Below the pieces are notes generated by a model, which saw only the letters and a list, made by a program, of their open reading frames with translations, was not told the origin of the DNA and did not search any database. 64,000 nt of DNA from NCBI RefSeq assembly GCF_988243305.1, contig NZ_OZ547136.1; one strand, 5' to 3'. The position numbers and the translations under genes were made by a program. Numbering within the stretch: the stretch's first letter is position 1; every line of letters begins with the position of its first letter. Below, piece by piece: positions 39,572-43,395 of the stretch.

Positions 39572-39608
39572 GCCTGATGCGACGCTGGCGTGTCTTATCT
39601 GGCCTAAC
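39572..39608. repeat. REP element
   Basis: GCCTGATGCGACGCTGGCGTGTCTTATCTGGCCTAAC between convergent yohD and yohF. Confidence 0.7.
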
Positions 39609-40451: not shown

Positions 40452-41888
40452 TCAACGTTTGTAACCCCCGCCCAACGCACCAGTGAGTTGAATGGAGGCA
40501 TCCAGCCACTGCCCTTGCAATAACAGGCCATTGGCCCGCTCACGCAGCGCGGGGATTCTGGCTTCGCTGACGCGGGAACCCGCAATGATGCCCGCGTTAA
40601 AGCGCGCCTGCGCAAGACCTACTACACGCAAGGCATCGCGCTCAATTTGCGCCTGATGCTGGTTTTTCTCCGCCAGTGTCTGAACCTGACTAGCTGCCCG
40701 CGCCACGTCATTCACCGCTTCAACCACCGCTTTGTTGTAGCTGGCGATAGACAAGTTGCTTTCGGCTTTTGCGATATCGAGGTTGGCGTTAAGACGGCCA
40801 CTATCGAAAATGGGTAGCGTCAGGCCTGCCGTAACGCCCATTTGCTGCGCGGAATGACGGAACAGATCGCTTAAGTGCAACGCATCCTGTTGCAGGAAGG
40901 CCATCAGGTTGATGTCAGGATAAAATGCCGCTTTTGCCGCATCAATAGTGCTTAACGATGACTCAACGTACCAGTGCGCCGCCTGCAAATCTGCCCGCCG
41001 GGCCAGTAAGGAGTACCCCAGTTCATCAGGAAGCTGGCTTGCCACTTTCGGCAACGCGACCGGATTAAGCTTCAATGCCTTTGTCTGGTGATTTGTAAGT
41101 GCGCTTAACCGTGCCTCAATAATTTTCATTTTCCCCGCGACATCGTTGAGCTGCTGCCGGGTTTTGCTGGCATTAATATCGGTTTCCACACCTTCAACTG
41201 AAGAAGTAATCCCGTTCTGATATAGCTGGCGATCGGTGGCGATAATGGTGTTCTGCTCTTTTTCGATTTGCTGTAAGACAGTGTTTAACGCCGCCTGGGT
41301 TTGCCACTCCCAGTACAGGCGGGCTACGCTGCCAGCCAGCAATTGGCGGGTTTGCTCGCGTTCCGCCGCTCGTGCTTTAACCGTACCCAGGCGAGCAGTA
41401 ACCTCCGCCCGATTCTTTCCCCAGATATCGAGATGCCAGCCCGCCGTTAAGCCAAAAGTACCGTTGGTGTACCACGGACCGGTCGTACCTGCGGCAGGAT
41501 CGTTCAGAGCAAACGGCCCCATTAACCCTTCTGCCGACATTTTTTGCCGCTCCATATCCGCAGAAAAGTCGATCTGCGGACCATCCTGAGTGGCAACTGC
41601 CTTCGCCTGGGCTTCAGCCAGCTGAATGCGCTGTTCAGCCACCTGCATATCCGGTGCGTTCTGTAGTGCATTGTTAATTAAGGAAGTGAGCTGATTATCG
41701 TGATACTTCAGCCACCATTGGCTGTCTGGCCAACCATTTTTCAGCGCCGTGGGTAATGCGGTGTCAACTTGCACAGCGGGCGTTTGCTGGCTTAACGCCT
41801 GGCGGGTTTCATGCATAGGCGCACACCCGGCCAGCATCAGTAACAGCGGAAAACAGGCGATGGCGGGATAAAAGGAATCACGATTCAT
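40452..41888 (-). CDS. mdtQ: Outer-membrane efflux lipoprotein (TolC/OprM-like), intact (about 478 aa)
   Basis: Uninterrupted ORF with lipoprotein signal (LLLMLAGCAP); start codon choice uncertain (41888 vs 41978). Confidence 0.7.
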   Translation of the reverse strand: MNRDSFYPAIACFPLLLMLAGCAPMHETRQALSQQTPAVQVDTALPTALKNGWPDSQWWLKYHDNQLTSLINNALQNAPDMQVAEQRIQLAEAQAKAVATQDGPQIDFSADMERQKMSAEGLMGPFALNDPAAGTTGPWYTNGTFGLTAGWHLDIWGKNRAEVTARLGTVKARAAEREQTRQLLAGSVARLYWEWQTQAALNTVLQQIEKEQNTIIATDRQLYQNGITSSVEGVETDINASKTRQQLNDVAGKMKIIEARLSALTNHQTKALKLNPVALPKVASQLPDELGYSLLARRADLQAAHWYVESSLSTIDAAKAAFYPDINLMAFLQQDALHLSDLFRHSAQQMGVTAGLTLPIFDSGRLNANLDIAKAESNLSIASYNKAVVEAVNDVARAASQVQTLAEKNQHQAQIERDALRVVGLAQARFNAGIIAGSRVSEARIPALRERANGLLLQGQWLDASIQLTGALGGGYKR

Positions 41889-42111
41889 GGGGGAATAATC
41901 AGGTAAGAAAAGGTGCGCGGAGATTACCGTGTGTTGCGATATATTTTTTAGTTTCGCGTGGCAAAACATCAGTGGCAATAATATGACATATCCAGAAAAA
42001 TATACACTAAGTGAATGATATCTTCCGATTTATCTTAATCGTTTATGAATAACGGCAAAGGGCTTCGTTTTTTCCTATACTTATTCAGCACTCACAAATA
42101 AAGGAACGCCA

Positions 42112-42195
42112 ATGAAAATTATACTCTGGGCTGTATTGATTATTTTCCTGATTGGGCTACTGGTGGTGACTGGCGTATTTAAGATGATATTTTAA
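42112..42195 (+). CDS. yohP: Small membrane protein (27 aa): MKIILWAVLIIFLIGLLVVTGVFKMIF
   Basis: 28-codon ORF with AAGGAA RBS; single TM helix; below ORF-track threshold. Confidence 0.7.
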   Translation: MKIILWAVLIIFLIGLLVVTGVFKMIF

Positions 42196-42447
42196 AATTA
42201 ATTAATGTCATCAGATCCGAAAATAACGAGAATATTTCAGTCTCTCATCCTGTTGCGCTCCTGTCATGTGCATTGCTTCATATAATCACTGGCGCAAGGA
42301 GCGCGCAGGGGGCGACCAATCGCCGCTGCGCGGTGCCCTCGGCTTATCCCTTACGGCTACCGGGTCGGCGATTTTGACGCCACCAAACAACCGTGCGGCC
42401 TATTGATAAAGAGCTAACACATTGTCAAAAAACATCACTATGGTTTT

Positions 42448-43395
42448 TTAGAGTTTCTCGATATCAATTGCCTGAATAGCCCTTGCAATATCAGGGGAAT
42501 TATTCAACACCCGAACATGCTGAAATAATTCCGTTGCTTCATCGTATTCTTTACGCAAATAACTCAACCACTGTTTAATCCGCGCAACGTGATATAACCC
42601 GGTATCGCCCTGCTTTTCCAGACGGGTATATTTTTGCAGCAAAGCAACTACCTCCGGCCACGGCATTCGCGGTTCGTTATATTTTACCACCCGGCTCAGG
42701 TTGGGAATATTGAGCGCCCCGCGACCAATCATCACTGCGTCGCAGCCGCTGATCGCCATGCATTGTTGCGCGCTCTGCCAGTCCCAGATTTCACCGTTGG
42801 CAATCACCGGAATATTCAGCCGCTGGCGAATCTCGCCAATCGCCTGCCAGTCAATATGCTCCGCGCGGTAACCCTGCTCTTTTGTCCGCCCATGCACCAC
42901 CAGCTCCGTAGCGCCAGCCTGTTGAACCGCATCGGCGATTTCAAATTTCTTCTCACCGCTGTCCCAGCCCAGACGCACTTTTACGCTGACGGGCAAATGC
43001 GCTGGTACAGCTTCACGCATCGCTTTTGCACCCTGGTAGATGAGTTCAGGATCTTTGAGTAACGTCGCGCCGCCGCCGCTACCGTTAACCGTTTTCGACG
43101 GGCAGCCGCAATTGAGATCCACGCCCCAGGAACCTAACTCCACCGCACGGGCGGCGTTCTCTGCCAGCCATTGTGGGAACTGACCTAACAACTGCACGCG
43201 CACCAGCGTACCAGATGGTGTCCGGCTGGCGTTTTGTAGCTCAGGGCAAATGCGATGAAAGACTTTTACCGGCAGCAGTTGATCCACCACGCGGACAAAC
43301 TCGGTGATGCACAGATCGTAGTCGTTAACTTCGGTCAGCAATTCACGCACCAGAGAGTCAAGCACTCCCTCCATCGGTGCCAGTAACACACGCAT
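42448..43395 (-). CDS. dusC: tRNA-dihydrouridine(16) synthase (315 aa)
   Basis: Dus-family ORF ([13 protein letters not shown]..., TIM-barrel flavoenzyme). Confidence 0.9.

Follow-up and report, generated by a model that had tools for sequence, protein, structure and literature searches.

A probable relic of a structured, TwoAYGGAY-related repeat between yohP and dusC of Escherichia coli

The yohP-dusC intergenic region

The stretch of DNA analysed here, 64,000 nucleotides of contig NZ_OZ547136.1 from RefSeq assembly GCF_988243305.1 (hereafter the window), is Escherichia coli DNA in which mdtQ, yohP, and dusC are followed by yohJ and yohK. The yohP and dusC genes converge, and the spacer that separates their stop codons (42196-42447) is 252 bp long, versus 372 bp in E. 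coli K-12. Situated between the two convergent 3' ends is a GC-rich segment that is very probably a decayed copy of a multi-copy, structured enterobacterial intergenic repeat with a TwoAYGGAY core, and that has most likely been turned by two deletions into a functionless relic. This conclusion is drawn from the deletion of a module that intact copies carry, from the absence of a promoter- or terminator-like site at the segment in scans of 41900-42600, from the absence of a Pfam match for the local open reading frames (ORFs), and from the disruption of those frames by natural indels.

A preliminary description of the window had boxed the segment at 42290-42420, noted its short inverted repeats and the TATAAT that precedes them, and suggested either a structured RNA or a cluster of terminators. 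The TATAAT is indeed found at 42281-42286 and the GC-rich stretch runs from approximately 42290 to 42400, with the remnant of the repeat reaching somewhat further to the left than the box (Table 1). The inverted repeats are surviving stems of the repeat, together with one pair drawn together by a 41-bp deletion. Thus, CCGC-TGC-GCGG (42323-42333) is a real conserved hairpin, but CGCGCAG...CTGCGCG, in which CGCGCAGGGG (42302-42311) is inverted relative to CCGCTGCGCG (42323-42332), is present without being a conserved pair; it joins parts of the hairpins H5/H4 and H3, which are not partners in the family structure, and its halves lie closer together because of the deletion. Two further perfect 8-nt inverted repeats, GCGCTCCT/AGGAGCGC and AATCGCCG/CGGCGATT, correspond to the stems H5 and P1. 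As had been surmised, the segment is not a repetitive extragenic palindromic (REP) sequence. With a consensus of ~35 bp (GCCKGATGCGRCGY...RCGYCTTATCMGGCCTAC) and up to three mismatches allowed, the only good match in the window is at 39572-39607, with three mismatches.

Table 1. Coordinates of the yohP-dusC spacer features and of the repeat remnant within the window
Feature	Position	Strand	Description
yohP, 27-aa small membrane protein gene	42112-42195	+	Converges on dusC; ORF list and K-12 annotation
dusC stop codon	42448-42450	-	ORF list and K-12 annotation
Whole remnant	42243-42399	- (presumed RNA strand, that of dusC)	Alignments with K-12 and paralogous copies
Hairpin H5, complete	42255-42304	-	Arms GCGCTCCT (42255-42262) and AGGAGCGC (42297-42304); variable 34-nt loop with TATAAT
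GC-rich hairpin H4, surviving left arm	42306-42317	-	CAGGGGGCGACC; partner arm GCCGCCCCCTG deleted
Deletion 1 junction	42318-42326		41 bp lost between 9-bp direct repeats AATCGCCGC; one copy left
Hairpin H3 (CCGC-TGC-GCGG), intact	42323-42333	-	Helix 10 of the family
Outer stem P1, retained	42318-42373	-	AATCGCCG (42318-42325) with CGGCGATT (42366-42373)
Deletion 2 junction	42365-42368		79 bp lost between TCGG(G)CG microhomologies

The two strands of the remnant differ in how they fold. Positions 42248-42392 fold on the + strand to -62.4 kcal/mol (z = -3.37), with none of 200 shuffles equally stable, while the - strand, judged by energy alone, is unremarkable (z = -0.94; 39 of 200 shuffles equally stable). 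The suggested cluster of terminators was not borne out, as 41900-42600 contains 0 terminator-like sites on either strand and no U tracts. The same region has no promoter-like site at the TATAAT, with no -35 element at a distance of 16-18 nt, and the hexamer lies within the variable loop of H5 and is not conserved in paralogous copies. A search of 41800-42700 with the Rfam covariance models returned no meaningful match at E <= 10, but sub-threshold noise only, consisting of AgvB and eukaryotic small nucleolar RNA models. The weak match to AgvB (an anti-GcvB small RNA) at 42218-42278 (+) reaches 22.9 bits (E = 0.079), where the gathering score is 56, spans the yohP-proximal spacer and the left arm of H5, and is probably due to chance.

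A multi-copy repeat of the Enterobacteriaceae

When the spacer was compared by blastn with 5,426 complete E. coli genomes, its sequence was found to be repeated at 1-6 places per genome (median 3). Besides yohP-dusC, where O157-like genomes carry the copy in inverted orientation with respect to the genes on either side, copies are located at aqpZ-lysO (94% identical to the K-12 dusC copy), at alx-sstT in some strains, and at yegH-asmA, which carries a second subtype of the repeat. The total for K-12 is three, with the dusC and aqpZ-lysO copies intact and the yegH-asmA copy truncated near the point of the window's second deletion.

Beyond E. coli, a scan of one-genome-per-species data with a conserved-core pattern, which requires the first of two hairpins with GGA in their loops, identified 76 loci, in Escherichia, Citrobacter, Enterobacter, Klebsiella, Kluyvera, Leclercia, Silvania, and Pseudocitrobacter, along with a few chance or contaminant matches; no locus was found in Salmonella in these data. 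A 5.37-Mb Klebsiella pneumoniae record, filed as a plasmid and evidently a chromosome, has the repeat at 13 places. The phage collection contained no match. The plasmid collection gave 34 matches, but these probably reflect chromosomal sequence filed as plasmids rather than plasmid carriage, with all four of the matches examined lying in housekeeping-gene contexts and several of the records being multi-megabase. Copies can also occur together: one spacer of Kluyvera sichuanensis holds one copy of each subtype, arranged tail to tail, and a K. pneumoniae spacer holds two direct copies 437 bp apart.

The placement of copies relative to genes is biased. At 52 of 68 loci the upstream gene lies on the predicted RNA strand of the repeat, and the commonest arrangement is between convergent genes (30 loci), although both counts include orthologous loci and hence are not independent observations. 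Since most copies follow closely on a gene of the same orientation and fall between converging genes, they probably undergo transcription as part of a 3' region. The yohP-dusC copy starts ~50-60 nt downstream of the dusC stop codon and on the same strand, that is, in the dusC 3' region, and the terminator scan found no terminator-like site between the stop codon and the repeat. Inspection of the aligned flanks by eye revealed no convincing promoter or terminator that family members share at their ends.

Conserved secondary structure

Fifty-six non-redundant copies were aligned over 311 columns, with RNAalifold used to predict structure and an nhmmer profile used for searching. The predicted structure consists of 59 pairs in 14 helices, 30 of the pairs with compensatory double changes. 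Standard pairs occupy 98.4% of cells versus 87.1% in column shuffles, with none of 500 shuffles reaching the observed value, and pairing falls to 37-45% of cells once the 3' partners have been displaced by 1-3 columns. Between subfamilies, whole stems have been exchanged, GCGCTCC/GGAGCGC (the stem of H5) being wholly replaced by CGTTCAC/GTGAACG, and GGGGGCGGC/GCCGCCCCC by AAAGGGCG/CGCCCTTT. The full-length K-12 copies fold to -140.6 kcal/mol (z = -5.3) on the dusC strand and to -127.7 kcal/mol (z = -5.0) on the other.

The predicted model for intact copies, which are ~260-280 nt in length, begins with an outer stem, continues with a long irregular stem that bears two adjacent hairpins with A(N)GGA loops, and is completed by a small hairpin, a GC-rich hairpin, and a terminal hairpin with a variable loop. 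On the dusC strand, the two GGA hairpins of K-12 read CACAUGGAUGUG and UACAGGGAUGUUA. The GGA-to-GGA spacing is conserved at 27-29 nt, and the GGA loops are invariant in 56 of 56 copies, the first of them being demanded by the search pattern.

The strand on which the RNA would be made can be addressed from the alignment. The RNAalifold energy is -80.9 kcal/mol for the dusC strand versus -67.1 kcal/mol for the other, and pairs predicted on both strands include ~29 A:C cells, which are G.U on the dusC strand, versus ~7 G:T cells; several pairs, written as on the + strand, are C-G in some copies and C-A in others. Because of the energies and the asymmetry of G.U versus A.C, the dusC strand (the - strand of the window) is favoured as the RNA strand, with its loops reading AUGGAU. 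We regard this as moderate evidence, not as proof.

What remains of the structure in the window

The remnant measures 157 bp, compared with ~277 bp in K-12. The family profile matches 42248-42368 (nhmmer, E = 1.2e-20) and nowhere else in the window, with a single internal gap that coincides with deletion 1. The one complete hairpin at the left, H5, corresponds to helix 14 of the family, and its loop varies in sequence between copies. At the position of H4, K-12 reads GGGGGCGGC-CAATCGCC-GCCGCCCCC, corresponding to helices 12-13 with 7 covarying pairs, of which the window retains one arm. Three of the four pairs of H3 covary in the family (CCAC/GTGG, TTGC/GCAA, TCGC/GCGA). The outer stem P1 is helix 1, with 5 covarying pairs, and its pairing is kept in the minimum-free-energy folds; it aligns in K-12 to the outer stem of the TwoAYGGAY Rfam model. 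All that P1 still surrounds in the window is H3 plus the inner stems' 3' strands, left without partners (42334-42365), because deletion 2 took both A(N)GGA-loop hairpins together with the 5' strands of the inner stems. An internal-loop AAGGGAUAAG persists at ~42342-42351 (-), with its GGA from 42349, and the GGA motif is absent from the hairpins of the window copy.

Relationship to TwoAYGGAY

The centre of the intact element, read on the dusC strand, is two adjacent A(N)GGA-loop hairpins inside an enclosing stem, which is the TwoAYGGAY motif (RF01731). The curated gathering score of that model is 43 bits. The E. coli-type copy of K. sichuanensis scores 44.6 bits over the full 168-position model, and the neighbouring inverted copy scores 49.2 bits. 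The K-12 copies score 30.9 bits (the yohP-dusC orthologue) and 30.6 bits, and a Silvania copy scores 30.6 bits. Searches of whole loci gave no TwoAYGGAY match for the Klebsiella and Citrobacter copies at E <= 1, and the window copy gave none at E <= 10. The family therefore straddles the curated threshold, and the link to TwoAYGGAY rests on the Kluyvera copies and on sub-threshold full-length matches elsewhere. The loops read AUGGAU and AGGGAU in K-12, and AUGGAU in both hairpins in Kluyvera, Silvania, and Leclercia.

The TwoAYGGAY motif has been listed in gamma-proteobacteria (Weinberg et al. 2010, PMC2864571), and we regard the repeat as the gamma-proteobacterial branch listed there. Intact copies share the core of the motif, an enclosing stem around two hairpins with AYGGAY-type loops, as well as its gamma-proteobacterial distribution. 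However, the enterobacterial element is longer (~260-280 nt) and has three further conserved hairpins that lie outside the Rfam model, and the second loop in E. coli is AGGGAU and not AYGGAY. The window copy is a degenerate relative of TwoAYGGAY and not a member, because it falls short of the score, lacks both hairpins, and retains the outer stem alone. The earlier suggestion of a structured RNA is therefore right as to origin, since the segment derives from a covarying family some members of which pass the TwoAYGGAY threshold, but not as to the copy itself, which is a deletion remnant that has lost its signature hairpins.

Two deletions and an allelic series

Alignment of the window with the K-12 spacer shows that the difference between them is exactly two gaps, each flanked by direct repeats, and that outside the two gaps the sequences are 98-100% identical. 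Among the full-coverage matches listed in the search of E. coli genomes, the spacer is matched in 2-3 pieces over 373-375 bp versus 255, because the window lacks two blocks that are present in K-12.

The exact junction of deletion 1 is found in 2 of the 5,426 genomes, both times at yohP-dusC. The deletion 2 junction is more widespread, occurring in 551 of the genomes; three records match 39 of 39 bases, and both of those examined are at yohP-dusC, while the remaining records match 37 of 39 bases, and the one examined is at aqpZ-lysO. Together, these form an allelic series at yohP-dusC, with spacers of 372 bp without deletion (K-12), 331 bp with deletion 1 only (19KM1776), 293 bp with deletion 2 only (Z1323HEC0462), and 252 bp with both deletions (AF40, whose spacer is identical to that of the window). 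The AF40 flanks differ from the window at 15 of 1,436 positions despite the identical spacer, so the window probably derives from a relative rather than from AF40 itself.

The setting of both deletions, short direct repeats flanking very stable hairpins, is the classical one for replication slippage, which we take to be their probable origin. The same junction as that of deletion 2 recurs in the aqpZ-lysO copy, and in K-12 and CX07 the yegH-asmA copy is cut short at a similar breakpoint and so again has neither GGA hairpin. The two-GGA-hairpin module has thus been lost near the same boundary at three loci (yohP-dusC, aqpZ-lysO, and yegH-asmA), with the loss at aqpZ-lysO affecting ~10% of complete genomes and that at yegH-asmA including K-12. 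Such recurrence might be due to a hot spot of slippage, to gene conversion among the copies, or to selection in favour of losing the module.

Possible CsrA binding by intact copies

Dubey and co-workers reportedly obtained, in 2005, the consensus RUACARGGAUGU for CsrA by SELEX (systematic evolution of ligands by exponential enrichment). The two GGA loops agree with that consensus, among them the K-12 loop UACAGGGAUGU, and each GGA is a loop motif of a short hairpin with ACA/UGU as its closing bases. The conserved distance between the two GGA motifs falls in the range that a single CsrA dimer is reported to bridge. CsrA binding has also been proposed for TwoAYGGAY (PMC4333381; bioRxiv 10.1101/2021.11.03.467129). 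Like CsrB and CsrC, intact copies present GGA in the loops of short hairpins, but they differ in having 2-3 GGA sites per copy rather than 9-22, and in that neither a promoter nor a terminator of its own was found for the repeat; the window copy has neither of the hairpins.

The course of events that best accounts for these observations is as follows. Intact copies would act as an RNA element in the 3' region of the co-oriented upstream gene, and their loops, judging from the likeness to the consensus, may bind CsrA. The 41-bp deletion between the AATCGCCGC repeats removed half of the GC-rich hairpin, and the 79-bp deletion between the TCGG(G)CG repeats removed both GGA hairpins; slippage from one short direct repeat to the next, across a stable hairpin, would be expected to produce deletions such as these. 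What was left would contribute at most residual stable structure to the dusC/yohP 3' region. A more ambitious version, which we consider unlikely, is that intact copies are portable CsrA-docking modules that insert or recombine into the 3' regions of enterobacterial genes and make upstream mRNA stability dependent on CsrA, that E. coli carries natural on and off alleles of them, and that the window allele is a natural knockout in which dusC is uncoupled from CsrA.

Several points weigh against the relic explanation as set out here. Transcription of the element is presumed from its position. The conservation of the first GGA hairpin is circular, since the pattern by which copies were collected demanded it, and family members that naturally have no GGA module would be missed by that pattern. 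The + strand of the remnant still folds significantly better than chance, so a residual role is conceivable. The repeat occurs in both orientations at the same locus and is antisense to the flanking genes at aqpZ-lysO, which fits a mobile or recombining DNA element equally well. Lastly, K-12 dusC, which has an intact element, shows no CsrA peak in crosslinking and immunoprecipitation sequencing (CLIP-seq) and does not change significantly with csrA (Potts 2017, Supplementary Data 2). As the repeats are near-identical, multi-mapping CLIP-seq reads may have been dropped. The half-life of the dusC transcript is 3.25 min in the wild type versus 1.74 min in the csrA mutant (log2 -0.90; Potts 2017, Supplementary Data 2), one of the table's larger decreases although it is flagged as not significant. 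We take it as a weak hint in favour of a link to CsrA.

Alternative explanations

It is possible, if doubtful, that the segment is the remnant of a DNA-level mobile element, either similar to a MITE (miniature inverted-repeat transposable element) or a passenger of REP-mediated rearrangement, and that its palindromes matter as DNA and not as RNA. This possibility is compatible with, and not exclusive of, the explanation of the segment as a decayed repeat. The repeat is multi-copy with genus-specific subfamilies, occurs as tandem and tail-to-tail copies, and is polymorphic in presence, absence, and orientation at yohP-dusC and yegH-asmA; multiple non-coding copies with presence/absence polymorphism, and local ORFs without a Pfam match, are what is expected of a MITE. 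At yegH-asmA, the empty allele contains a single REP, whereas two inverted REPs bracket the complete copy of one filled allele; other alleles have a complete copy in the reverse orientation or a truncated copy. However, alignments revealed no convincing terminal inverted repeats, and no target-site duplications were evident when filled and empty alleles were compared at two loci. The yegH-asmA indel is bounded by inverted REPs and not by a duplication, and the alx-sstT alleles are sequence replacements and not a clean insertion. Recombination via flanking palindromes is at least as likely as transposition. Furthermore, no associated transposase was seen at the copies, the phage collection had no matches, the plasmid matches are in chromosomal-type gene contexts, and the asymmetry of G.U versus A.C, together with the gene-orientation bias, points to selection at the RNA level. 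At alx-sstT, the place occupied by the repeat in strain E308 is taken in K-12 by an unrelated palindromic repeat, presumably Box C-like, in which CCCTCTCCC/GGGAGAGGG and GGGGTGAGGG abound, and the same palindromic motif flanks the repeat in Enterobacter and Silvania.

Rather unlikely, in our judgment, is that the remnant still serves as a structure-based 3'-end element for the yohP and dusC transcripts, in the manner of REPs and bacterial interspersed mosaic elements (BIMEs), whether as a terminator, as a Rho-related pause, or as a barrier to 3'-to-5' exonucleases. Its position between two convergent 3' ends would suit such a role, as would the preference of the family for convergent spacers and for sites downstream of co-oriented genes, the persistence of stable GC-rich stems, and the fact that no other terminator is visible in the 252-bp spacer. 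But no stem is followed by a U tract and no terminator-like site was detected, the - strand of the remnant, which would be the dusC transcript, folds no better than shuffles, and strains tolerate the loss of 120 bp of structure. The conserved loops and the 14-helix architecture of the family are also far more elaborate than a barrier requires.

An independent small or cis-regulatory RNA on the + strand, initiated from the TATAAT and folding through the local palindromes, is very unlikely. The hexamer is a perfect -10 element and the + strand fold is the more significant of the two, but no promoter passes the scan, the hexamer is confined to a variable loop and is missing from paralogous copies, neither a terminator nor an Rfam match accompanies it, the wobble-pair asymmetry of the family favours the other strand, and alleles with the 41-bp and 79-bp indels coexist in E. 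coli. A small protein gene is scarcely credible, because although ORFs are present on both strands (one of 46 aa at 42266-42406 (+) and two of 34 aa), none of the three has a Pfam match, the natural indels, at 41 and 79 bp, are not divisible by three and shift the reading frames from one allele to another, substitutions across copies are compensatory in stems and not codon-like, and the sequence shows no start codon suitably spaced from a ribosome-binding site.

Comparison with other repeats

Like the REP/BIME repeats, the repeat described here is a GC-rich palindromic extragenic sequence that accumulates at transcription-unit 3' ends and in convergent spacers, and its copies adjoin REPs at yegH-asmA. 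It differs from them in giving no consensus match in the region, in being ~8 times longer and present in far fewer copies (1-6 per genome), and in its complex multi-helix fold with conserved loops. Enterobacterial repetitive intergenic consensus (ERIC) elements have clear terminal inverted repeats, which were not found in the alignments of this repeat. The likeness to the ERIC or intergenic repeat unit (IRU) class and to RU-1, RU-2, and RU-3 is that all are intergenic, multi-copy, and structured, occur in both orientations, and show presence/absence polymorphism across Enterobacteriaceae. For repeats of this class, Delihas (2007, PMC2759123) gives lengths of 127, 168, and 103 bp, which differ from that of the present repeat.

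A literature search for a classical name, using RSA, Box C, Rudd-type intergenic repeats, and literal sequence strings, gave nothing relevant. RSA is reportedly a rare 152-bp intergenic repeat of E. coli K-12, mentioned in the 1997 K-12 genome paper and in reviews, and may possibly be the same element.

The window segment matters little in itself, as it is explained as a relic and nothing about it suggests an undiscovered gene or regulator. The finding is an ordinary one, and its by-products are modestly interesting. These are an enterobacterial branch of the orphan motif TwoAYGGAY, which in E. coli K-12 is just under the curated threshold and so gives the motif a home there; a larger conserved structure of 14 helices in which that branch is embedded, located mostly downstream of co-oriented genes; and a natural allelic series with and without the putative CsrA-binding hairpins. 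A tractable model organism with ready isogenic contrasts is thereby available for testing what TwoAYGGAY does, a question that dates from 2010.

Two minor observations concern the neighbourhood of the spacer. A promoter-like sequence (ATGACA-16 nt-TATCAT, 42211..42184 (-), 10 of 12 matches), the sole one detected in 41900-42600, points antisense into the 3' end of yohP, and since promoter-like sites in that region are fewer than the shuffle expectation, it may be a chance occurrence. The mdtQ frame (40452-41978, -) is fully open in the window, while in the K-12 annotation it is a frameshifted pseudogene.

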